Assembly (NCBI GenBank): GCA_963772715.1
Contig: CAVYYM010000033.1
Location: 220,549 to 284,548, forward strand
Reading direction: 5' to 3'
DNA from: an uncultured Bacteroidota bacterium
Lineage (GTDB): Bacteria; Bacteroidota; Bacteroidia; Bacteroidales; VadinHA17
DNA length: 64,000 nt
Made by a program: the position numbers and the translations under genes. Under the pieces are notes generated by a model. That model worked only from the letters and a program-made list of their open reading frames with translations. It was not told where the DNA came from and searched no databases. Of this stretch, positions 5,327-63,666 are shown piece after piece. Position 1 is the stretch's first letter. The number at the start of each line of letters is the position of its first letter.

Positions 5327-6016
5327 ATGGGTTGTATTACAAAACATTATCTTAACAAGGACACCGTCCTGGGAGTATGGAAAATAGAAGAGGAAATCGA
5401 TACCCTTCTTGAACTCGCAGTGCTGGATAATGATGACAGGAAGAGATTCAAGGGATTTGCCAGCACTTCCCGGAAGCTGGAGTTCCTGAGCGTCAGGGCT
5501 CTTCTTGCTGAACTATTGGGAAAGGATGCCAGAATAGTATATAACAAGAATAACAAACCCTTTCTGAGAGATGGTTCGAGATTTATCTCCATAACACACT
5601 CACATAAGCTGACTGCAATTATTACAAGCGTGAACGAAAAGGTAGGTATCGATCTGGAATACATGAGTTCAAATATTAATGCTTTCGCCTTTAAATTTCT
5701 GAACAGAAAGGAGAAAGTGACGAAGAACAGCGATACGCGAAAATATCATCTGTATATTCACTGGTGTGCGAAGGAATCTCTTTACAAGATATGCGACAAG
5801 GAAGGGATAAACTTCAGGAAAGACATAACCATTGAACCGTTTGAATTGAAGGAATCAGGAGAGATAAAAGGATCTGTGAAAACGAAAAAGATAAACGAAT
5901 CATTCGACCTCTTCTATTCCAGATATGACAATTATGCAATTGTTTGGACAAAAAAGAATTATGGGAACAAAGAAATTTCCGGGAAAGAAGAGCGTAGCGT
6001 TGCTGCTCGATCCTGA
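5327..6016 (+). CDS. 4'-phosphopantetheinyl transferase superfamily protein
   Basis: 229-aa ORF with motifs FLSVRALLAELLG, KPFL, SITHS and GIDLE...W(C)AKESLYK. Confidence 0.75.
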   Translation: MGCITKHYLNKDTVLGVWKIEEEIDTLLELAVLDNDDRKRFKGFASTSRKLEFLSVRALLAELLGKDARIVYNKNNKPFLRDGSRFISITHSHKLTAIITSVNEKVGIDLEYMSSNINAFAFKFLNRKEKVTKNSDTRKYHLYIHWCAKESLYKICDKEGINFRKDITIEPFELKESGEIKGSVKTKKINESFDLFYSRYDNYAIVWTKKNYGNKEISGKEERSVAARS

Positions 6017-8500: not shown

Positions 8501-10215
8501 TTATCTCCGGTGGACTACCACAAAAGATGCCTTGTCTGTAACTTTTGTCTCTGTATTCCGTATAATAATAGTATATACTCCTCCCGGAAGATCCTGAATG
8601 TTCAGATAAAGCGGTATATCCTCAAAAGTGTGCACTTCATAATTACCCGTATTCATCGTGACATTTATCCCCAGGGTATTGATAATATTTAATTCGACTA
8701 TTCCGATCTGCCGCTCAGGCAGCACAACCTTAATGAACTCATTGGCCGGATTGGGGTAAATAAAAAGTCCGGCAGTAGTCACTGTATCGACCGGATTGAA
8801 CAGGGGAGTCATTTTAACATCAACCCAAGTCACCTGCTCCTGTTCGACGATGACAGTAACCGTCTTGTTCAGATAACCGTCAGCGGTGAATTTAAGAGTC
8901 CATGAACCCGGGGCAATAAGCCTTGTAAAAACACCGGTGATCGTATCGGAATATACATGGGAACTGTCTGCATCATGCCCCTCGATAAATATCTTTGCAG
9001 GAACTGCCTCATCAGTATTAATATCGGTCACAGTTCCATGAATGCCATAAAGGGCATTTTCAAGGTAACCTAAAAGAGAACGCCAATTGTACTCCCATAA
9101 CAAGTTGAGGTTCGCCGAAGGGGTTTGCTTCGTATCGTCGAGTTCGATGGTAACCTCCCTTCCCTGTAACTCCCAGGTGGCATAATCCTGCCTTCCGCCA
9201 AAAATATAATACCAGTCCCAGCCATTGGTTACCCCATTCTCCAGGAAGGTCATATAACCTGCTATTGAGTGAATATGGACGGTATCGGCATATTTCCTGC
9301 TGATATAATAAAACCAGTCCTCATCCGGATGCCGCCTTTCCCACCTGTCCCACGGATAATTCACCACCTCCGCTCCGCCATGAAAATTAGCTGAAAGAAC
9401 AAAATGGTGAGCTCTCATGAACCTGATCATATCGGTTGTCTCTACCTGCTCAGGAAGGTCCCTTCCATTGGGATCGGGAAAATTCCTGTTAAGATTAATA
9501 TTATTAGCGTTATTGCGTACTGGTGAAGATATTGTATTGCCGTTAATATATGTTCCGTCAGGATTAGCGAGCGGATTAATCCATATCTCAAGATTGTCAA
9601 CCAGGTTACTAACTCGCTGATCCGTAGCATAATTCTTCAGAAGATATTCCGCAAACCTCATCATCAGAACAAATCCTCCGGTCTCATCACCATGAATAGT
9701 TGAAGAATAAAATACCTCCGGTTTATCCTGGTCCTGATTTGGATTGTCTGATATCTTAAGAGCCAGAACAGTTTTCCATTTACTGAAAACCCTATTGTAT
9801 CAAGCTTGCATAGTGAAGGGTATAACGAAACAAAAGACCTCATTATAGAGTCATACTGAGTAAACGTCGGATAGCTTGCCCACCCCTTAGCCTCGGCCAT
9901 GGTTGAAGCTGAAACAAGGTTCTTGGGATCAGGTTCGGGAATTATCGAATAATCATAATTTCTGGAAATAAACCACTCAACGTTCAGGGATGAGAGCCCA
10001 ACTTCAGCATATTTGCCCCTGACCGAATTTATCGACACGTTCCTTGAGAGTTCCAGAAAAGAACTCTTGTCAGGAAGGGGAATCGAAACCGCTGCCTGCC
10101 CGTACCGTCCGATCATCATCTTAAGAAGGTTATCCCTGGCTGCATCCTGGGCAGTGGATTTCATTGCCAGGACCTGCAGAAGGATCAATATGATGATAAG
10201 CCGCTTATTCATCAA
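8501..10215 (-). pseudogene. M14 zinc carboxypeptidase with T9SS type A C-terminal sorting domain, interrupted by a 1-nt frameshift
   Basis: ORFs 9664..10215 and 8501..9664 join only through a frame change. The sequence ...GFSVNGK then continues in the -1 frame as TVLALKISDNPNQDQDKPEVFYSSTIHGDETGG. The shift sits in an A4 run (plus-strand T4 at 9772-9775). The total length is 1715 nt, which is not a multiple of 3. The C-terminus YPNPANEFIKV...GVYTIIIRN is a Por-secretion tail. Confidence 0.8.
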
Positions 10216-14378: not shown

Positions 14379-15242
14379 TCAGTATTTCTCAGGAACAAAT
14401 GTCTGATCGGTCATCGGGGGCCTTACATAGGCTACATCATGTTTCAAGGGGGGCAGCTTGAAGGGTTTGGGGGTCAGGTCTTTATACGGGATCAGTGTCA
14501 GGAGGTGGTTGATCGTATTGAGCCTGGCTCTCTTCTTGTCGTCGGCGCGGACAACGTACCATGGTGATTGTTTGGTATCGGTATAGGAAAACATCTTGTC
14601 TTTGGCCATTGAATATTCCACCCATTTATCGCGCGATTCAACATCCATAGGGCTTATCTTCCATCGCTTTGTCGGATCCTGGATCCTGTCCTGAAACCTC
14701 TTTTCCTGCTCATGGTCGCTCACTGAGAACCAGTATTTGATAAGGATAATTCCTGATCTGATCAGCATTTTTTCGAATTCGGGACAAGATCTGAGGAACT
14801 CCTCATATTCTTCGTTTGTACAATAACCCATTACCTTTTCCACCCCAGCCCTGTTGTACCAGCTCCTGTCGAAAAGGACTATCTCCCCGCCGGCAGGGAG
14901 CTGTGTCACATAACGCTGAAAATACCATTGCGATTTTTCCTTTTCGGTGGGAGTACCAAGAGCGACTATCCTGCAGATCCTTGGATTAAACAGCCTGCAA
15001 TTGTTTTATAACCCCTCCTTTGCCAGCTGCGTCCCTTCCTTCAAAGATCACAACAACTTTGAGCTTATTTGCCTTTACCCACTCCTGAAGCTTCACAAGC
15101 TCTATCTCCATTTTCAGAAGGCTTTTTTCAAAATCACAGAACCAAGCTTTTCCTTCTGTTCCTGTTTTACATCATGATAAAGATCTTCCTTATCAAATTT
15201 CCTGACAGCAGCTTTCTTTTTCTTCTTATCGTGTGATCCCAT
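14379..15242 (-). pseudogene. ppk2: Polyphosphate kinase 2 (PPK2) with two opposite frameshifts
   Basis: ORF 14379..14909 encodes only the C-terminal two thirds (LPAGGEIVLFDRSWYNRAGVE...). Upstream, the Walker A segment EIELVKLQEWVKANKLKVVVIFEGRDAAGKGGVIKQL lies in a second frame, and MGSHDKKKKKAAVRKFDKEDLY... lies in the original frame. ATG at 15242 to the stop is 864 nt, so the net shift is zero. Confidence 0.8.
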
Positions 15243-15271
15243 GGCAAAAAGATTAGAATAAAGAAGAAAGA

Positions 15272-15305
15272 TAATAAAAAATCCTGAAAATCAAGATTTT
15301 CAGGA
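15272..15305 (-). terminator. Intrinsic terminator
   Basis: On the minus strand, a 10-bp perfect stem TCCTGAAAAT/ATTTTCAGGA with a CTTG loop is followed by TTTTTTATTA. Confidence 0.6.
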
Positions 15306-15307
15306 AT

Positions 15308-15400
15308 TAAAGTTTAAAGTGCCTAAAGTTTGGAGTACTAAAGTTAAAAGGATTAATTATGATTATAACTAACTCTAAGTACTTTAGGCACTCCAAACTA
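15308..15400. repeat. Tandem-unit hairpin, locus H (units around CTAAAGT / ACTTTAG)
   Basis: AGTGCCTAAAGT (15318-15329) pairs perfectly with ACTTTAGGCACT (15381-15392). Flanking units (AGTTTAA.., TTGGAGT, ACTAAAGTT versus AACTCTAAGT, CCAAACT) extend an imperfect long stem. Confidence 0.6.
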
Positions 15401-15482
15401 TTGTATAAAGGGTATTGCCAGCGGATATTTGAATTTCTCTCCTTTTGGAGCTTTTATGCTTGCAATGATTATACATATGATT

Positions 15483-15740
15483 TTAAGTGTTACCAGGAAC
15501 ATCAATAATCGGGATGCCAACAATGATGAACAGAAGAGGAATAGTAAGCACGATATAAAGCAGGATCGAAAGCTGAAAGTTCATTGAAGCTTTGCCGTTG
15601 TCATCGACCCATGCAGATTCGTCTTTTCGGGAGAACCAGCAGATCAGAGGACCTATTATACCTCCGAAGGGAAAAAAGAACATGCAAAGCCTGAAAGATG
15701 ACAGAGCATAGCCCAGTTCCTTTCCGATTCTGATAATACT
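15483..15740 (-). pseudogene. DUF4870-like small membrane protein, frameshifted
   Basis: ORF 15483..15683 starts mid-domain (FFFPFGGIIGPLICWFSRKDESAWVDDNGKASMNFQLS). The expected upstream motif NWAMLCHLSGFA lies in another frame. The junction is at an A6/T6 run near 15673-15680. The 5' limit is approximate. Confidence 0.6.
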
Positions 15741-15806
15741 TTAATCTCTTCCTTTGCCTTAAGCTGTTGTTTATTAAAAAGACGGAATTATTTTGATCAA
15801 TGATGC

Positions 15807-16130
15807 ATTATTCAAATCTTGAAAGCCGTTTCAGGTCAGAAGGCAGAAGTCCGTTCGGATTGGATTTATCGATAGTAGTGAAGATTATAATAATACATAT
15901 TGGCATCATCGGTGCCTATAAACATTTTAAAGCAATATCCTTCATCCTTTTCTCTCCCCACAGGCCCAACCTTATGCAGAAAAACAGTGTCGGAGCTTTT
16001 GCTCTATTGCTTCCACAATTTCCTCTTCGGCACAATCTCCATCATTATATGAATATATAGCTTTTATCCTTGCAATAGTGCCGATATCAGGAGTAAGGTC
16101 CTCCTGCTTTAACAAGATTGTCTTATTCAT
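15807..16130 (-). pseudogene. Small conserved-looking hypothetical protein, two frame changes
   Basis: Manual translation gives MNKTILLKQEDLTPDIGTIARIKAIYSYNDGDCAEEEIVEAIEQK.., then DTVFLHKVGPVGREKDEGYCFKMFIGTDDANMYYYNLH.. in a second frame, then TIDKSNPNGLLPSDLKRLSRFE* back in the first. The ATG overlaps the upstream stop (TAATG). Confidence 0.45.
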
Positions 16131-16667
16131 TATTCAGGGATATTCTCATTATAGTATTTCAGATATTTCCTTCCGGTTTTTGAAGGGTCCTCTCCATTAT
16201 CAGGTTGCATGCTTCTGCATAAATTCAAGTATGGCTCCAAGCTTATAGCCATATTCAAGATCATCTTCGCCTGCATATGAAAGAGGTACGGCACAAATTT
16301 CCGGCATTCTCACACAGCTTATCAACATTCTTTCCCTGAAGAAGGTTTATGAAATTAAAAACCGAATTTGTCTTATCATTTTCAAAATTGGTCTCCGTAA
16401 GGACAATGAAATGAATAATGCCGGTTTCAGCCGCCTGACATTGAATTCCTTGGCATCAATGAATTCATACGGAGTCATCTTCCAGTATTGCTTCATGGCA
16501 TCCTTAATATATGCATTAAATGCGGAAAAAGGGTCATCTTCAAGAACAACACATGTTTTTGATCCACTGAACTGCTTTATTTCATCCTTGTTTGGGAAGG
16601 GTGCCTGCCCTGCAAACCGATACAGGAAGGAGGACGGAACCGTGATAGAAAATAATATTTTCATCAT
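16130..16667 (-). pseudogene. Hypothetical protein, at least two frame changes
   Basis: ORF 16347..16667 (MKILFSITVPSSFLYRF...EFNVRRLKPA) continues plausibly only in other frames (IVLTETNFENDKTNSVFNFINLLQGKNVDKL; PLSYAGEDDLEYGYKLGAILEFMQKHA; ...YLKYYNENIPE*). Confidence 0.45.
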
Positions 16668-16669
16668 TA

Positions 16670-17415
16670 TTATTGATTTACAGGTATATACAGTGGATTT
16701 TTTTCATTGAACTTCCGAATATAAACGAACATCAGATCTTTCCGGTCTTTCCTGGGAAGCCTGACATATTCCTCATAAAGCTCACTGTCTTTCATCAGCA
16801 GCAATTCGTGTTTTTCTGGTCGAATTCAAGGATTTTGCCGTTTTCAAAATCTATAAGATATTGTTTAATCTCATTCCTCGACATATTGTTACGTCCGTAG
16901 GGTGAATAATATGATCCATAGGGGAATAGTAATTGCCATAACCGTAAGGGTGAATAATAGTATGGATCATAATAGTCCTCCATATGGAGAATAATAACGG
17001 CTGTCATAAGTCGTTACATCAGCAACAAAATGACATATGCTTCCCACAAAGGTAATCCTGTTGAAATTTTTCTGAACCTGAATATAAATAACCCCATTCC
17101 TTGCATATCCCCGATATTGCTCACTTCTAATTTCCTGCCTTATCCCATACCGTCATAGTAATAGATCTTTTCAGATTCCAAAAGCTTCTTGAAGAATTCC
17201 TTGTCGTTATAGTCTGTGGATGTAAGAAGCTGTGCTTTCGGTATCGGGCTGTTCTGCTTCACCTGGTCGAAATTAACATAGATGCCATCCTTAAACCTGA
17301 AATCAGGAGTATACTTAACCATTCCTTCCTGGCCCTGCCCGTTCAACGTGAACAACAGATAGCAACTGAAGCATACAGTGGCAGTAAGAATAAATATCCT
17401 GAAAAATTTCCTCAT
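16670..17415 (-). pseudogene. Secreted hypothetical protein with Tyr-rich (YYSPYG) region, at least three frame changes
   Basis: ORF 17140..17415 carries a signal peptide. Continuations lie in other frames (IRSEQYRGYARNGVIYIQVQKNFNRITFVGSICHFVA) and in ORF 16795..17007. The C-terminus LLLMKDSELYEEYVRLPRKDRKDLMFVYIRKFNEKNPLYIPVNQ* is reached after a shift at an A5 run near 16800. Confidence 0.45.
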
Positions 17416-17518
17416 AACAATAGCGATTTACCTTTCCCGTTCAAATATCATACCGTTTGGGCAAAATTAACCATTTCCTTGAAAGGGTGTTAAATACGCG
17501 CTAATGATATATTTATTA

Positions 17519-17526
17519 TATATTTG
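17519..17526 (+). promoter_or_regulatory. Candidate -7 box (TATATTTG) upstream of the sensor kinase remnant
   Basis: Plus-strand match to TAnnTTTG in the AT-rich spacer. This is a motif match only. Confidence 0.25.
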
Positions 17527-17689
17527 CTTAATTTTACAAAATTCAAAAAAAACAGTATGGCCAAGGAAGCCGAGACAAGATAATAGTACAGATAATCAAA
17601 ACAGTACTGGCGAATCATATGAAAAGCACCGAAAGAAGATTCAAGATCTGTTCATACTTTGAGTCATTACAGGATAATCATTGCTCTAC

Positions 17690-18910
17690 TTATGCTTAAT
17701 GTTAATACTATAATCTTATTGCAGGAGTTATAATCATCATTGTCTGCATCCTGCATGGACGTACCTGATCAGGAAAGCCATCAGGACTTGATAAAGCGTA
17801 CAGGATTCATTAATGATGTATCATCCTCAATGAACAGAAAGATAATGTGATAACTGACTTTTCGCATAAGATCAGGGAACCTCTGAATAATCTCGTGATC
17901 ATTACCGATATGCTTATGGAGTCAGGCCTTCAGAAAAAGCAAAAGGAACTTCTGGAAACTTTTGTTGCCTCAACAAACAACATGGTTACATACTGTTAAT
18001 GAATTAACAATGCAATCGGCCGGTAATCTGAGCTATGAGACCAAGAAAACATATTAGGTTCAATCTTTTATCAACAATCCAGAACACAATAGAGCTTTAC
18101 AACCTTAAGGATAAGGCCAATATCGATTTTATTCTTAACAAAAAGGAATTCGGTGATTTTGAATGTTTTGGAGATCCAATAATTCTTAAACAGATATTCC
18201 TCGACATTTTCAACATAATTGAAACACAGAATACTCGGAAAGAACGACCAAAGTTACAATTAACCTGAAAAGGGAGAAAGAGACCGGAAACGAAAATCTT
18301 ATAGGATTCAGAATCCAGACTGACAAGAACATGGTACTGATAGATGAAAATGACTCTGAGCACAGTCTTGCTGCAAGACTTATTATCAACAGAAGGGCAC
18401 TTACAGCCAGGAATCAGGAACAGAATTACACCGTTCTGAATATAACTCTTCCGTTTGCAAAAGTGTCCATGAGACAAAACAAATATTGCCTCCCAGAAAA
18501 TTGAAGAGCTGATTCAGAAGGAAAAGGTTCATAAGGAGCTGAAAGACATTAAGATACTTCTGGTTGAAGATAACCTGATAAACCAGAAAATAACACTTCT
18601 CACCCTTAAACCGCTTGTAAGCAGTATTGATACTGCATCCAACGGAAAAGAGGCTCTCGATAAATTCGGCACTGCCAACTACGACCTGATACTGATGGAT
18701 ATCCAGATGCCTGTAATGAGCGGACTTATTGCAGCAGAAAAGATCAGAGCACTTGAGTCAAGTACCAATACCCATGTTCCGATAATTGCAATAACTGCAA
18801 ATGCAATGATCGGCGATAAGGAAAAATGCATCTCTGCAGGAATAGATGATTATATCAGCAAGCCATTCCAGCCATCAGCCCTGATTGAAAAGATCAAGAA
18901 ATTCATTTAG
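17690..18910 (+). pseudogene. Hybrid sensor histidine kinase / response-regulator receiver, fragmented by at least four frame changes
   Basis: The H-box FSHKIREPLNNL sits at about 17859. A degenerate HATPase region follows (ORF 18035..18268, then ...YTVLNITLPFAKV). An open REC-domain frame runs 18473..18910 ([16 protein letters not shown]...[14 protein letters not shown]...ITANAM...DDYISKPF) with no upstream ATG. The 5' limit is approximate. Confidence 0.7.
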
Positions 18911-19941
18911 TTCTCCTGAAAGAGGTTTGAATCCGATGACCATCATGTCATCGATCTGCTGATTGCCCGCCATCCATGTTTTTATATTTTCATCCAGAAT
19001 CGATTTCTGGTCATTGACCGGGAAACTGTGAATCCGTGTAAGCAGATACCTGAACCTCCTGTACATGAACTTCTTGTTTTCGGTGCCTCCAAACTGGTCA
19101 ACATAGCCATCGGAAAATATATAAAGAATATCATTGTCAAGCAGTCCAGCTCATGGGATGTGTATTCCATCCTTTCAGGATTCATGCCGATAATTATTTT
19201 GTCTCCCTTTAACTCGGTAAGGGTATTGTCGCGGATAAGGTAAAGCGGAAAAAAGGCTCCGGAATACTCAAGTTTTCTTTTCTTCCTGTCAATGACGCAG
19301 AGACCTATATCCATACCATCCCTGATAATTGTTCCCATATTCTTTTCCCTGCTGAATGTTTTTTCAAGAGCCCTGTTCATTACAGCCAGAATTGCTGAAG
19401 GCTTTTCAATATTATCTTCGAGTATTGCTTTTTCGATTATCTCCAGACCCACCATCGACATCAGGGCTCCGGGCACACCGTGTCCGGTGCAATCGGCGGC
19501 AACAACGAAAATCTTGCCTCCCTTTTCACCGATCCAGTAAAAATCGCCGCTGACAATATCCTTCGGCCTGAAAAAAATAAAGGAGTCACTGAAATGTTTT
19601 CTGAAAAACACCTCGGACGGCAAAAGGGCTTCCTGTATCCTCTGTGCATATATCAGACTGTCAGTCAGATTTTTGTCCCGCAGTTCAAGTTCATGCTTCT
19701 GCTTTTCAATCTGTTCAAGAGCCTGCTCCTTTTCCTTCAGCACCTGACGGGTTAAAAACAGACTCCGTGTCTGGGATATAATTGAAATGAGAAGAAAAGC
19801 CAGCGCAATGAAAAGAAGAATTCTCATTGAAAACTCAGGGAGATTCAACCATACGTTGTACAGTGAACCTGCAGGCGCAAAACAAAACACCGAACATGGC
19901 AGATAACCATATATCAGAAGAGTACTCATGCTATTCTGCAA
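18875..19941 (-). pseudogene. Membrane-anchored PP2C/SpoIIE-family serine phosphatase, one frameshift
   Basis: ORF 18982..19941 contains the SpoIIE core (SGDFYW...VAADCTGHGVPGALMS...). After ..YTSHELD the homologous continuation LLDNDILYIFSDGYVDQFGG..MYRRFRYLL.. lies in the frame of ORF 18875..19066. The total length is 1067 nt, not a multiple of 3. The junction is near 19140-19150. Confidence 0.75.
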
Positions 19942-58744: not shown

Positions 58745-59674
58745 ATGCTCAGGATCCTCTTCTATCTGGTTTTTATTTTAACCGTGGCTCTTACGTCTGC
58801 AGGTATCATTCTTGCATCACGGCTCCGAAACAACAATAGATCGGAAATATTCTCCCCTCTTCTCTATTACCAGGTCTTCATATTTACCTTTGGATTCTAC
58901 GGGATATGGGGTCAAGTGCTCATAAAGGCATTCCTGGCTGCCTACATTTCCCCCGGGCTTTTTACCCGCTTTTCCAATATGGCACTATTGATGGGGCTTC
59001 CATTCCTGGTATTTGCATGGCTGATGCTGATACAGTTCGCATCAGGTATCTCAGGCAGAAAGACAGGCGGATGGGCTGTTTTCTCATTCCTTTTCGGAAA
59101 TTTCTCCATACTCTTCATCCTGGGTTATTTTATCGCGAGCAAGAATATAACCGAACCCGCCAGGCTCGTCAAGAACTATTATATCCTGATGAGTGTGATC
59201 TGGTCGCTGATTGCTTCATACCTTATCCATTTGCCAATAAAAGGTAAGGAGACGGTTCATGAGTATGACAGAAAAATAACATGCACCCATGATTTCCATC
59301 ATCAGTATGTCTCAATGTATACCGCTGGTGTTTTATACTTCGGAATCGTGGCTGGCATTGATCTTCATCTTTGTCTTTTTCCTTGGAAACACATTTCTTC
59401 CTGTATATTTCAGCTATGGGACACTACGCCCATTTCTGCAACAGAACCTGCAAGAGACCTGTCATTTGAGCAATTCTGCAGAAAATTCGAAGTATCGCCG
59501 CGTGAGACCGATATTGTTCGGGAAATATGTAATGGACTAAGCAATAAGGAAATATCTGAAAAACTATTCATCAGCCTGCAGACTGTAAAAGACCATACTC
59601 ACCGGATTTATATCAAGACCAATGTAAGAAGCAGGGTGCAGCTGATCAATTTAGTAAAAGGAAACTCGAAATGA
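58745..59674 (+). CDS. Multi-TM N-terminal domain fused to a LuxR-type HTH (possible hidden frame excursion 59285-59460)
   Basis: 309-aa open frame with five clear N-terminal TM helices and a C-terminal LuxR HTH (SPRETDIVREICNGLSNKEISEKLFISLQTVKDHTHRIYIKTNVRSRVQL). The overlapping +1 ORF 59289..59540 encodes two more TM-like helices. Confidence 0.7.
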   Translation: MLRILFYLVFILTVALTSAGIILASRLRNNNRSEIFSPLLYYQVFIFTFGFYGIWGQVLIKAFLAAYISPGLFTRFSNMALLMGLPFLVFAWLMLIQFASGISGRKTGGWAVFSFLFGNFSILFILGYFIASKNITEPARLVKNYYILMSVIWSLIASYLIHLPIKGKETVHEYDRKITCTHDFHHQYVSMYTAGVLYFGIVAGIDLHLCLFPWKHISSCIFQLWDTTPISATEPARDLSFEQFCRKFEVSPRETDIVREICNGLSNKEISEKLFISLQTVKDHTHRIYIKTNVRSRVQLINLVKGNSK

Positions 59675-59734: not shown

Positions 59735-60344
59735 TTACAGAAACACCAATACTCGGCCTCCTTCAAATTCCAGTTCAAAATGATCTCCATTTGCTTCATT
59801 AAGTGTCGCTTCCCACCAGTTTTTCAGCTTTCTTTTGATGAGAGGATAACGCAATCCTGAAGAGGTGATCTCCGTTTCAGGATTGATAGAAAAGATTGAA
59901 ACCTGCTGTCCGGGAAATGTTTCAATCTTGCAGCTCTTATGGAACGGAAGGAAGATCCCGGTGTCAGTGACCATTTTAACATTCACAATTTCGGAATATT
60001 CTGCAAGCAATGAAATATTTCCTATAGTATGATCCTCTCTTTTTCCTGTTGCTCCCAAGTATTATGATATCATTATAACCTGATGCATGACACCATTCAA
60101 CTGCCTTGGTAAGGTCATTTGTCTCCTGATTATCATCAATATAGATACGGTCTGAAAATCTGTTTCGTAATTCATCGCTCAGAGAATCCATATCACCAAC
60201 AATTGCATCAGGTATCTTGCCTGAATTTATCAGGCTTTCAGCACTTCCGTCGCAGCATACAATCAAATCAGCACTTTCAAGATATCCAAGAGGCATTTCA
60301 TGAACGGGAAAAGCTCCGTCGGCAACAATAACTGCGTTTGACAT
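59735..60344 (-). pseudogene. thiN: Thiamine pyrophosphokinase, one frameshift
   Basis: ORFs 59976..60344 (..DLIVCCDGSAE...VGDMDS...DDNQETNDLTKA...DIIILG) and 59735..60058 (GATGKREDHTIGNISLL...) overlap in different frames. The junction is at a G3 run near 60052-60056. The total length is 610 nt, not a multiple of 3. Confidence 0.8.
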
Positions 60345-60350
60345 TGAATT

Positions 60351-60993
60351 TTATTTATTCACGTTTAATGATTTCTTCCATTCTATCAGCCCCACGAACG
60401 ACATAGCACAATATACAATATATAGTATTACTGTCGGATACAGATCCCTGGTAAAAAAGAGCGCCGCGGCAGCTAATATTGACAACAATCCACAGAAACC
60501 AGTGTTCATAGATCTTCCGGGCCAGCATCCATGTTGCTATAACCGAAAGGGAGGTTATAAACGAATCCCACGCGGGCACCGGCGAATCAGTAAGTCTGTC
60601 AAGTATAATCCACATCAGGAAAAACAATAGCAGGAATACCACAGTAAGAATTATTCCTGTATTACCAGTTTAAGTCTGGTTACTTTTAGCTTTTCTTTGC
60701 TCAAATGCACCTGTCGCCGTCCTCGATAGCTATTCAGCTGAGCCTGCGCCTCGCCTATCGCCTTTGATCCACCAATACCATCCCAAAATACTGATAACCA
60801 GATAATATCCCTGAAGGCTCATATCTGCATAAAGCTTACCTGTGAAGAATATCCATATATAAACCGCAGATGTTATAATCCCCACCGGCCACAGCCAGAT
60901 ATTCTGTCTGATTTCCAGTATCACATACAGTATTCCGGTGACTGCTCCGAAAAGTTCAATATAATTATTTGATATCCAGTCAGATATAATCAT
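60351..60993 (-). pseudogene. pnuC: PnuC-family (PnuT-like) vitamin transporter, at least three frame changes
   Basis: ORFs 60730..60993 and 60355..60642 are PnuC-like (WPVGIITSAVYIWIFF; SLSVIATWMLARKIYEHWFLWIVVN). In-frame stops lie between them. The conserved C-terminus LAAAALFFTRDLYPTVILYIVYCAMSFVGLIEWKK lies in another frame and ends at 60351. Confidence 0.75.
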
Positions 60994-61002
60994 GTTTTAA
61001 TA

Positions 61003-63453
61003 TTAAAACATAATTCCGGCCCTGAATATGACATTCGTGCCTGCTTGCGGGAAATAGTACGACCAGCTCTTTTCAATACCAGCTTCGTACCAATTGCCGC
61101 CATAAGCATTGCTCTCATATTCCGTATTAAAAATATTATTTACAAAAACCTGGAATTCAACACCTTTTCAGTTTTCTTATCACCGGTTCAAAGGAGATTC
61201 TCAGATTATTCACAAAGTATGGATCGAGCATTCTTTCCGCGGCTCATAGTGTTGTCGAAGTATTGCTTCCCTACATATTTGCTGATAAGGTGTATCCCGA
61301 AGTTTTTCAGGATTTTGAAATTCAGGTCGCTGGTTCCGGTAATGGAGGGAGAATAAGCTATATCGACAGTTCCGAGGTTTTTACTCTTATACGCACTTTC
61401 CCAGGTTAATGTATCATAATCAGTATAATACATGGTGAAATCGTTGATCTTATTTCTGCTCAGGGTAAGGCTTAAATCCCAGTCGAGGAAACTGAATGGT
61501 TTCAATCCTGCACTCAGCTCGATACCGGCACTATAACTCTTCCAACATTAGTCATTATAGAATACCCAGTGCTGCTGAGCTCCCCTGTTGGAACCAGCTG
61601 ATCATGATAATACATCAGATAACTATTCATAGCAAGAGAAAAGTTCTCAGCTTTCAAGCTGTATCCCAGCTCGGTATCAAACAGTCTCTCCTGTCTGGGT
61701 GTTGCATCCGGATCACCTGTGGCCTCTTTGAAATCGGCTCTTGTGGGCTCCCTCCCGGCGACTGAAAACGACAGCCAGCCAATCTGTCCGGGCGATATCT
61801 CCCAGAAAAGTCCGGCCTTTGGATTGAAAAAGCTGAAACTATGCTCCTGTGCCAGGTCTTTCTGCAGATCATCTATCTTATCATCATCCTTGCCTTCCAT
61901 TTTATAAAATATGTACCGGTATTGCAGGTCTCCATAAACAGATAGATCATCAGTCATCGAATAAGTTGCCTTGGCGTAGACGCTTGCTTCGCTCTTTGTT
62001 CCAGTATTGAAGTACCATTGGTAATCTTTCTCAAGGATTGAATATTTCATCCAGATGATCTCCCCGAAGTGATCGCCTGCGTAATAATTTGCTCCTCCGC
62101 CGAAAGCAGCCTCGACCTTGTTCTTCGCATATTTAAGGGAGTATACAAGTCCGTAGAAATCGTTCGATATCCATTTTCTTGTTATCAGATCGGTCGATGA
62201 AATAACTGTGTCACCTATATTTATTTCATTAACGGGAAGGTAGTCTGAGATATCCCTCGTCTTCCTTGAACTCTTCATAATAACCTTTGCCTTTTGTATA
62301 ATGCAGGGCAGTGCTGAGGTTAAGATTATCACTGATATTCAGGCTGTAGATCAGCTGAAAGTGATCCTGCCGGTAGTTGTCGCTCTCATTATCATAATAA
62401 CGTGTCACTCCATTCTCATCCGTATATTCTCCTGCCGGATTATATCTCCTGTCAACCGTAAGCATTTCCTCCGGCACTCCCCACCACCCTATGCCTGTAT
62501 GTTCTTCCCCCAGAATAATATTGGCTTTTATCCTCGACCGGCCCGCTCTCATGAAACCGGAAATGTATGATGACCTGTGATCGGAACCAGTTCTTTTGAT
62601 GTATCCATCACTATTCAGCTGCGAAAGCCTGAGCTGAAGAGCGAACCTGTCCTGCAAGAAGACCCGTTCCTGCAGCCAAAGTGTTCTTAATGGTACTGAA
62701 TGATCCTGCCGATGAATTTAATTGTGCAAAAGGCTCATTTTCAGGACTTTTAGTTTGTATGCTGACTGTTGCCTCCAAAAGCTCCGGCACCATTTGATGA
62801 AGTTCCGACACCTCTCTGGACCTGGATATTGTCAACTGATGAAGCCAGGTCAGGCAGATCGACCCAGAAGACCTGCTGTGACTCAGAATCATTGAGTGGT
62901 ATCCCGTCAATTGTCACGTTGATCCTGCTGGCGTCGGTGCCACGTATGCGAAGGCTGGTATATCCTATTCCGTTGCCGGCTTCTGAGGTTTCAACCAGTG
63001 AAGGAGTCATTGCGAGCAGGAAAGGGTATATCCTGACCTGTGTTGTTCTTTCTGATGAGCTCTTCATCAATTGTTGAATATGCAAGGGGAGCGCGGTCTC
63101 CTGCCCGTATTGCATTGACAATCACCTCTCCTGCATTATACAGTAAGGGAACAAGCTGAATATTGAGAACCGCTTTTCCCCTGACATAAACCTCTTTCCT
63201 GATGGTTTCGTAACCCAGAAAAGAAATATCGTATTGCATAATAACCATCCTTAAGCCCTGCAAGTGTGTAAAATCCGTTTTCATCACTCAGGACACCAAG
63301 CTGAGTTCCCGTAATGGAGACTCCTGCACCCGGAACCGGATTGCCTTCATGGTCGGTGATTCTGCCTGTAATGACAGAACCATTTACCTGAAAGGCCAGA
63401 ATATCAGGAAATAAAATAAATACAAGTATTAATGCAAAAATTATCCGTCTCAT
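61003..63453 (-). pseudogene. TonB-dependent receptor (CarboxypepD_reg + plug + barrel), at least eight frame changes
   Basis: Seven track ORFs plus a tail tile the gene across all three frames. They cover the N-terminus MRRIIFALILVF..NGSVITGRITD, the plug IRGTDASRINVTIDGIPLNDSESQQVFWVDLPD..VQRGVGTSSNGAGAFGG, barrel segments, and the C-terminus ..NIFNTEYESNAYGGNWYEAG..NVIFRAGIMF* ending at 61003. Confidence 0.8.
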
Positions 63454-63504
63454 TCCATGTCAGCAAAAACATTAGTCCGATGAGGTGGATAAACAGCTGA
63501 TTTA

Positions 63505-63595
63505 CAGGATACTCTTCGTTCCCTCCGCCGGCATTATCCGGATCAGGTTTTAAGGGTATGATCTCAGCCTGTAATATTAAGGCACCCCATTTTCA
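63505..63595 (-). promoter_or_regulatory. TPP (THI-box) riboswitch
   Basis: The minus strand reads GGGGUGCCUUAAUAUUACAGGCUGAGAUCAUACCCUUAAAACCUGAUCCGGAUAAUGCCGGCGGAGGGAACG. It matches the TPP aptamer consensus closely (GGGGUGC..GCUGAGA..ACCC..ACCUGAUCyGGAUAAUGCCrGCG.AGGGA). It ends about 55 nt upstream of the receptor ATG. Confidence 0.92.
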
Positions 63596-63666
63596 GAAAG
63601 CACAAAGTTAAAAACCTTTTCCCTGTATTGCAATTTTTTTTAAATTAGCATGGAAAAAACTGATCT

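Follow-up and report, generated by a model that had tools for sequence, protein, structure and literature searches.

Does the thiamine operon of an uncultured Bacteroidales bacterium belong to a scavenging pathway that the organism has lost, or is the deposited sequence at fault? We examined this question in a window of 64,000 nucleotides (contig CAVYYM010000033.1), in which a TPP riboswitch heads three genes with disrupted reading frames. An earlier note on this DNA took the disruptions to mean that scavenging of exogenous thiamine had been lost while the regulatory RNA had not yet decayed. Read at face value, such a loss of vitamin B1 scavenging would lead to wrong auxotrophy and cross-feeding predictions for an uncultured Bacteroidales lineage.

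On the minus strand, the order is TPP riboswitch, TonB-dependent receptor, PnuC/PnuT-family transporter and thiamine diphosphokinase (Table 1); Rfam, Pfam and NCBIfam matches bear out this order, which had been proposed from the sequence. Fragments of the receptor match the Pfam models CarboxypepD_reg, Plug and TonB beta-barrel. Restored by frame-aware alignment to the 811-aa orthologue of a related locus, L002, the receptor displays 73.8% identity and no in-frame stops; NCBIfam returned generic TonB-dependent models only, with scores below their cut-offs. Both transporter fragments match PF04973, and the restored transporter, 81% identical to that of L002, matches TIGR01528 at 86.8 bits (cut-off 42.45) over profile positions 2-185 of 187. 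NCBIfam names it PnuC nicotinamide riboside transporter, and among solved structures PnuC 4qtn is nearest to it in sequence. The two kinase fragments match PF04263 and PF21275. The restored kinase is 73.8% identical to its L002 orthologue and matches the TIGR01378 equivalog at 148.6 bits (cut-off 76.4) over profile positions 2-205 of 206. For the receptor and the PnuC-family transporter, it is the riboswitch and kinase context that suggests thiamine as the substrate. Together the results show an ordinary Bacteroidales operon for thiamine uptake and salvage under the control of a TPP riboswitch. The TonB-dependent receptor would import thiamine through the outer membrane, a PnuT-type facilitator would carry it across the inner membrane, and thiamine diphosphokinase would convert thiamine to TPP. 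TPP would feed back on the leader RNA, probably via a conserved CUCAU element (63484-63480) that pairs with the start codon and masks it.

Table 1. Features of the window and positions of the frame breaks (+1, gain of one base; -1, loss of one base).
Feature	Position	Strand	Basis
TPP riboswitch aptamer (THI element)	63506-63599	-	Rfam RF00059
CCUCAU leader element, conserved, candidate expression platform	63480-63485	-	10-leader alignment
TonB-dependent outer-membrane receptor, OMthi-like, ~814 aa restored	61003-63453	-	Pfam on fragments
PnuC-family inner-membrane transporter, PnuT by context, ~213 aa restored	60351-60993	-	PF04973
Thiamine diphosphokinase, Tnr3/ThiN type, ~201 aa restored	59735-60344	-	PF04263 + PF21275
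Receptor breaks	+1 at ~63225, 63026, 62773, 62649, 62258, 61238, 61168; -1 at ~61542	-	L002 alignment
Transporter breaks	+1 at ~60759, -1 at ~60664, +1 at ~60477	-	L002 alignment
Kinase break	+1 at ~60059	-	L002 alignment
Second damaged patch, six neighbouring unrelated genes with 29 single-base frame breaks	14,988-19,142	both	frame-aware alignment
Second patch, PPK2: 3 breaks			
Second patch, MamF_MmsF-like gene: 2 breaks			
Second patch, two hypothetical genes: 6 and 5 breaks			
Second patch, SpoIIE phosphatase: 1 break			
Second patch, HisKA/response-regulator gene: 12 breaks		+	

The riboswitch, which looked canonical in the earlier note, is confirmed. Its match to RF00059 reaches 57.8 bits (gathering score 54.3) and covers the full model (positions 1-105); the scores of nine orthologous loci are 54.7-59.9 bits. 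Alignment of 10 orthologous leaders revealed an invariant aptamer core and 65 invariant columns, nearly all inside the aptamer. The CCCTTA-AACCTG joining region carries one extra base in the window, common to L002 and L010. The conserved CCUCAU element could form pairs with AUGAG at the start codon of the receptor (63453-63449). Across the 10 leaders, 85% of cells are paired; sliding the partner lowers this share to 23-53%. Two pairs of this helix show one compensatory change each, and the observed values were reached by 12 of 500 shuffles. Conservation and pairing make it likely that the element serves as expression platform by start-codon sequestration. An intrinsic terminator in this role was rejected, as the stretch from the aptamer to the ATG holds no terminator-like site. 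The intactness of the aptamer is uninformative on decay, because a 94-nt aptamer escapes ~70% of the time at the local break rate. The proposal of a regulatory RNA lingering after the loss of its genes is unsupported.

Most Bacteroidetes carry OMthi, pnuT and tnr3 as a single operon, and OMthi is the first gene behind 85 of 97 transport-associated TPP riboswitches (Costliow and Degnan 2017, PMC5613172; Costliow, Degnan and Vanderpool 2019, bioRxiv 10.1101/867226). The gene order behind the riboswitch is the same in the window. The locus had been likened to that of B. thetaiotaomicron; the likeness to a thiamine acquisition system is apt, but in B. thetaiotaomicron itself the genes are split, with OMthi apart from pnuT-tnr3 and two riboswitches, and the window has the single operon of most Bacteroidetes (PMC5613172). 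With translational control, those authors associate a distance under 20 nt; in the window, the end of the Rfam match lies 52 nt upstream of the receptor start codon, yet the leader holds a conserved anti-start-codon element. The operon architecture is already described for Bacteroidetes and the locus is one more ordinary example of it, with the difference that none of the three genes keeps its frame in the deposited sequence.

As deposited, none of the three genes is intact or translatable. We mapped the breaks by frameshift-aware protein-to-DNA alignment against the intact L002 orthologues. The alignment gives 8 breaks in the receptor, 3 in the transporter and 1 in the kinase (12 in total), in agreement with the frame changes counted previously (at least 8, at least 3 and 1), whose coordinates lie within ~45 nt. 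Each break fits one base, with 10 gains and 2 losses. Likewise, three more references (L003, L004 and L016) gave equal numbers and types of breaks at positions at most ~27 nt apart, most of them at most 12 nt. The break near 60759 lies in a poorly conserved linker, and its exact position is uncertain (60732-60759, depending on the reference). On either side of every operon break, the protein is colinear residue for residue with its intact orthologues; at 62773, for example, SSNGAGAFG followed by ATVSIQTKS is the L002 sequence but for one extra G. Two stops in the PnuC linker were considered as true nonsense and rejected, as the shifted frame EKLKVTRLKL matches EKLKVSHLKF of L002. The borders of the broken stretch equal those of the transcription unit within a resolution of ~300 nt. 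This match counts against an artefact, and operon decay would also predict it. Taken alone, the operon patch is compatible with consensus error or with real decay.

We compared the locus with its relatives. L002, L003, L004, L016 and others show an identical, intact operon layout, and in 31 of 37 species-representative loci one uninterrupted frame of 749-877 codons encodes the receptor. A first protein search had yielded fragments of <475 aa only; a receptor split across the whole clade was rejected in view of these 31 single-frame loci. The traced fragment hits on long contigs, P0019 in L001 and P0040 on a contig equal in length to that of L027, stem from long-read-style assemblies that have frame breaks of their own. 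In the searched collections, JGI data included, the nearest receptor relatives reach only 73-76% identity, and the protein search found no near-identical copy from the same species. Among the relatives, 7 of the 14 assemblies whose contig names are long-read-style have operon breaks, versus 1 of 24 short-read assemblies (Fisher P = 0.0017).

Damage in the window is not limited to the operon. A second patch contains 29 breaks (Table 1), and one isolated further break lies at ~9767. The second patch is syntenic with L039 and L040, in which all six genes are intact. It comprises 13 gains and 16 losses, has no in-frame stops, and its restored identity is 74-94%. The patch begins and ends inside genes (PPK2 and SpoIIE), and the flanking UbiD and HisRS genes are break-free. 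The window totals 42 breaks, 23 gains versus 19 losses, of which 6 losses could equally be two-base gains. The two patches hold 41 of the 42 in 11% of the window (binomial P ~1e-37); the breaks cluster far beyond chance. Hexamer statistics, trained on 31 kb of sequence, gave a frame plot of the window that was too noisy, and homology-based frame-aware alignments were used instead.

We then considered what kind of damage the breaks represent. No in-frame stop occurs in the 2,946 restored codons that span the 41 patch breaks. A random substitution produces a stop with a probability of 0.0405; if each indel were accompanied by 2-10 substitutions, 3-17 nonsense codons would be expected, and the probability of finding none would fall from 0.04 to 6e-8. 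Furthermore, the breaks display no preference for homopolymers: a run of at least 4 lies within 3 nt of 17% of the gains and 16% of the losses, against 16.5% of background positions, and the inserted bases are G (7), A (6), T (6) and C (4). Natural slippage indels, in comparison, are concentrated in homopolymer tracts (PMC10710837). The restored operon genes are 74-81% identical to L002, compared with 59-88% for the intact flanking genes. PPK2 has 3 breaks, yet is 93.7% identical to L039; the intact enolase and YchF reach 92%. Values of dN/dS are 0.016-0.13 for broken genes and 0.06-0.08 for intact neighbours at a saturated dS of 1.3-2.8. As dS is saturated against every relative, dN/dS is blind to a short recent neutral phase, and we dropped it as a discriminator.

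What the breaks are, where they lie and how they are distributed is shown, as is the intactness of the orthologues; from this we infer that the operon breaks are very probably local, uncorrected single-base consensus indel errors that arose in sequencing or assembly. The broken frames would probably reflect the deposited sequence rather than the organism. Consensus errors would leave indel-only damage regardless of gene, strand or operon borders, and the second patch has damage of exactly this kind. Gene-fragmenting indel errors are documented for long-read and low-coverage metagenome-assembled genomes (Sereika et al. 2022, PMC9262707; Kastor, PMC12007338). The window resembles these cases in its single-base gains and losses that split well-conserved genes, in the lack of nonsense or substitution-type damage and in the occurrence of breaks among relatives mainly in long-read-style assemblies. 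In contrast to such errors, those of the window are confined to two 3-4 kb patches rather than contig-wide and are without homopolymer bias, which suggests that something local is responsible, such as a depth dip, an unpolished bridge or collapsed strains. The errors would sit in a poorly covered or unpolished patch of 3-4 kb, with a second such patch at 15-19 kb, and may stem from a low-depth segment, a long-read-bridged segment or collapsed reads of co-existing strains. The claim that thiamine scavenging has been lost is unsupported: the breaks are single-base and ignore homopolymers, nonsense is absent, conservation is no lower than in intact neighbours and an unrelated six-gene stretch is hit as well.

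Unlike classical Nanopore consensus errors, which favour homopolymers, these breaks ignore them. This counts against an artefact, for which a low-depth, raw-read-like or PacBio-CLR-like error process must be assumed.

One form that the artefact may take, although we regard it as doubtful, is a mosaic of collapsed strains, in which the assembler or polisher fused reads of divergent alleles from two or more co-existing strains into a chimeric consensus with spurious indels. Both patches lie in variable accessory genes (receptor, sensor kinase and hypothetical genes) and conserved genes are clean, as a mosaic would have it. One related metagenome-derived genome carries two operon copies (L005 and L006), indicating that confusable paralogues or strain alleles exist in the clade. 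The highly conserved PPK2 nevertheless has its breaks, and the odd substitution patterns that merged alleles should produce are not visible at the present divergence.

Genuine recent pseudogenisation appears improbable. It would mean that exogenous thiamine became unneeded, that the operon drifted to 12 frameshifts and that the dispensable genes at 15-19 kb are decaying likewise. Several frame disruptions per gene in dispensable functions are indeed typical of the decaying pseudogenes of genome-reducing bacteria; both patches of the window hit genes of non-essential types, and its ribosomal, tRNA-synthetase and enolase genes are clean. The dispensable nature of all broken genes counts against an artefact, as real decay would also predict it. 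At the operon the breaks are confined to the three genes with intact genes on either side, and some Bacteroidetes are reported to have lost OMthi, pnuT or tnr3 (PMC5613172). The signature of the breaks is otherwise not that of decay. Forty-one of them are accompanied by no nonsense codon at all, every one fits a single base, and the larger frame-disrupting deletions and the homopolymer bias of decaying pseudogenes are missing. Bacterial pseudogenes have a known deletion bias, whereas here gains equal or exceed losses, both over the window and within the operon. Identity has not dropped, and dN/dS, read at saturated dS, shows no detectable relaxation. Moreover, the second patch takes in genes of either strand and has its ends inside PPK2 and SpoIIE, and the occurrence of breaks among relatives tracks assembly type.

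It is very improbable that the 41 clustered gains and losses are real products of a local, indel-only and homopolymer-independent mutational process that acted on two 3-4 kb islands too recently for substitutions to have followed; if it were so, such a process would have inactivated the thiamine scavenging operon together with a six-gene stretch. Real breaks bypassed by programmed ribosomal frameshifting, transcriptional slippage or RNA editing, with the proteins still made, would require perfectly preserved restored frames, as are found, but we give this next to no credence, as the 41 sites share no motif or slippery or homopolymeric sequence and need both +1 and -1 shifts, the receptor is single-framed in most related loci, and we know of no bacterial system with such a density of recoding sites.

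Consensus error, the reading we prefer, bears on use of the contig as well, since gene calls, pseudogene counts and metabolic reconstructions are untrustworthy at 15-19 kb and 59.7-63.3 kb, where the indel noise lies, until the reads are re-examined.

Our searches recovered the gene order that the earlier note had claimed: the TPP riboswitch, the sole family found in the window by Rfam search, is followed on one strand by domain matches to a receptor, a transporter and a kinase. With frames restored by alignment, the kinase passed the TIGR01378 equivalog and the transporter passed TIGR01528; it is their context that points to thiamine specificity of the transporter and receptor. OMthi-pnuT-tnr3 forms a single operon behind a TPP riboswitch in most Bacteroidetes and is split in B. 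thetaiotaomicron (PMC5613172), and 85 of 97 transport-associated TPP riboswitches in one survey precede OMthi (bioRxiv 10.1101/867226). The locus shares this architecture and is an ordinary member of an already described system.

Features of the operon, its flanks, the second patch and the closest related locus (L002); break counts are reading-frame breaks
Feature	Position	Strand	Breaks	Details
TPP riboswitch	63506-63599	minus		57.8 bits vs gathering score 54.3, full model covered
TonB-dependent receptor, fragments	downstream of riboswitch	minus	8	CarboxypepD_reg, Plug, beta-barrel; restored identity to L002 73.8%
PnuC-family transporter, two fragments	downstream of riboswitch	minus	3	PF04973; restored identity to L002 81.1%
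Thiamine diphosphokinase, two fragments	downstream of riboswitch	minus	1	PF04263 + PF21275; restored identity to L002 73.8%
LuxR-type gene	58745-59671			flanking, one frame
Membrane protein				flanking, one frame, 253 aa
Protein				flanking, one frame, 328 aa
Protein				flanking, one frame, 786 aa
Divergent gene	starts 63664			flanking, one frame
PPK2			3	second patch
MamF_MmsF-like gene			2	second patch
Hypothetical gene			6	second patch, 283 aa in L039
Hypothetical gene			5	second patch, 250 aa in L039
HisKA/response-regulator gene		opposite	12	second patch
SpoIIE phosphatase			1	second patch
L002 riboswitch	5664-5760 (L002)			intact
L002 receptor				intact, 811 aa
L002 PnuC-family protein				intact, 229 aa
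L002 kinase				intact, 215 aa

Scanning a single genome for each GTDB species turned up 37 related loci, which all come from uncultured Bacteroidales/Bacteroidota metagenome-assembled genomes (MAGs); 31 loci encode the receptor in one uninterrupted frame, 749-877 codons long. Among the 37, L002 (Bacteroidales MAG Prado086) is the most closely related. Its synteny with window 54.7-64 kb extends to both sides of the operon, and the flanking window genes are 59-88% identical to their L002 counterparts. No second assembly of the same species was found among the collections searched. Directly downstream of the operon and convergent with it (58745-59674, plus strand) lies a gene whose 309-aa product is a membrane protein carrying a LuxR/GerE helix-turn-helix at its C terminus; the gene is kept at the same position in L002 with 59% identity.

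We located the breaks by frameshift-aware alignment of L002 proteins to window DNA. The operon carries 10 one-base gains and 2 one-base losses, and on both sides of each the protein alignment runs on residue for residue; at 62773, SSNGAGAFG|ATVSIQTKS matches L002 exactly, one extra G aside. Three further references (L003, L004 and L016) left the number and types of breaks unchanged, with positions that differ by no more than ~27 nt, and mostly by no more than 12 nt. The counts and coordinates read by eye from the sequence thus hold.

The thiamine genes are not the only ones hit. Two loci syntenic with window 4.7-23.7 kb, L039 (a JGI metagenome) and L040 (an ENA assembly), revealed a second patch at 14,988-19,142, with 29 breaks (13 gains, 16 losses) in six adjacent unrelated genes, all intact in both loci. 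Flanking UbiD and HisRS are clean, and the restored genes of the patch hold no in-frame stops. The patch begins within PPK2 and stops within SpoIIE, and therefore respects no gene, strand or operon boundary. Outside both patches we found a single break, a one-base loss at ~9767 that splits a peptidase M14 / Por_Secre_tail gene (566 aa in L039) into minus-strand ORFs 9664-10215 and 8501-9664. Together, 41 of 42 breaks fall within 11% of the window (P ~1e-37); the damage belongs to two 3-4 kb sequence stretches, not to the thiamine genes.

The character of the breaks speaks against real decay. A random substitution in the restored codons creates a stop with a computed probability of 0.0405, so that 2-10 substitutions per indel predict 3-17 nonsense codons and a chance of zero of 0.04 down to 6e-8; the restored frames of both patches (2,946 codons, 41 breaks) contain none. 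Natural slippage indels cluster in homopolymer tracts (PMC10710837). The breaks show no such bias: 17% of gains and 16% of losses have a run of four or more bases no further than 3 nt away, vs 16.5% of background positions, and the inserted bases are evenly distributed. One base accounts for each break (6 of 19 losses are equally readable as two-base gains), gains and losses number 23 and 19 window-wide, and the aligned genes hold no larger frame-disrupting deletions. PPK2, with its 3 breaks, is 93.7% identical to its L039 orthologue; intact enolase and YchF are at 92%. Broken genes have dN/dS of 0.016-0.13 vs 0.06-0.08 for intact neighbours, a weak test because dS is saturated. The loss of thiamine scavenging proposed in the earlier note is therefore unsupported: stops and homopolymer bias are absent, events are of single bases, conservation is kept and unrelated genes are hit alike.

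Judged from these sequence patterns, the operon breaks are very probably indel errors of the consensus, local and left uncorrected. Nanopore consensus errors of the classical kind prefer homopolymers, which these breaks do not, and this leads us to infer an error process like that of raw reads or of low depth. The patches may stem from a drop in depth, a long-read bridge left unpolished or strain alleles that were collapsed; the last, a cause within the consensus-error explanation with no separate outcome, is rather unlikely. Real and very recent decay is improbable, and a bypass of the breaks by recoding or RNA editing has a negligible chance of being right. In practice the result serves mainly as a warning that two stretches of the contig are unreliable.

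Gene-fragmenting indel errors are known in long-read metagenome assemblies, above all in bins below ~40-fold coverage (PMC9262707; PMC12007338). We sorted the related loci by contig-name style, inferring the platform from the names: long-read-style (contig_N or tig; these are chiefly Microflora Danica MAGs, and one complete chromosome record is counted with them) or short-read-style (NODE_, k141_, scaffold). Operon breaks occur in 7 of 14 long-read-style and 1 of 24 short-read-style loci (Fisher P = 0.0017, platform judged by contig name). Six long-read-style loci (L001, L012, L026, L027, L032, L036) have one to several each; in L036 the receptor has three or more, and PnuC and the kinase one apiece. 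MAG MFD02416.bin.1.315 carries two whole riboswitch-receptor-PnuC-kinase operons on separate contigs, one with PnuC and kinase frame-broken (L005) and one intact (L006). In a word-indexed protein search, receptor matches were all fragments below 475 aa, even on 0.1-2 Mb contigs; most related genomes have intact genes of ~810 aa. Two long-contig fragments that we traced are products of frame breaks in long-read-style assemblies.

The riboswitch is indeed intact, as had been noted: its core is invariant in 10 orthologous leaders, and the aptamer's only length difference is common to the closest relative. With breaks as frequent as they are locally, an element of 94 nt would stay unhit ~70% of the time, and therefore an intact aptamer before broken genes carries no information. 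Between aptamer and ATG there is no terminator-like site. A conserved CCUCAU (63485-63480, minus) can pair with the start-codon AUGAG (63453-63449); across 10 relatives, 85% of cells are paired vs 23-53% with the partner slid. Two pairs have compensatory changes, the observed values also arose in 12 of 500 shuffles, and covariation support is modest. This pairing suggests that the riboswitch would act on translation by start-codon sequestration. Translational control has been measured for B. thetaiotaomicron transport riboswitches, with a distance to the start below 20 nt as a rule of thumb (bioRxiv 10.1101/867226), whereas the Rfam match in the window ends further away, 52 nt before the ATG.
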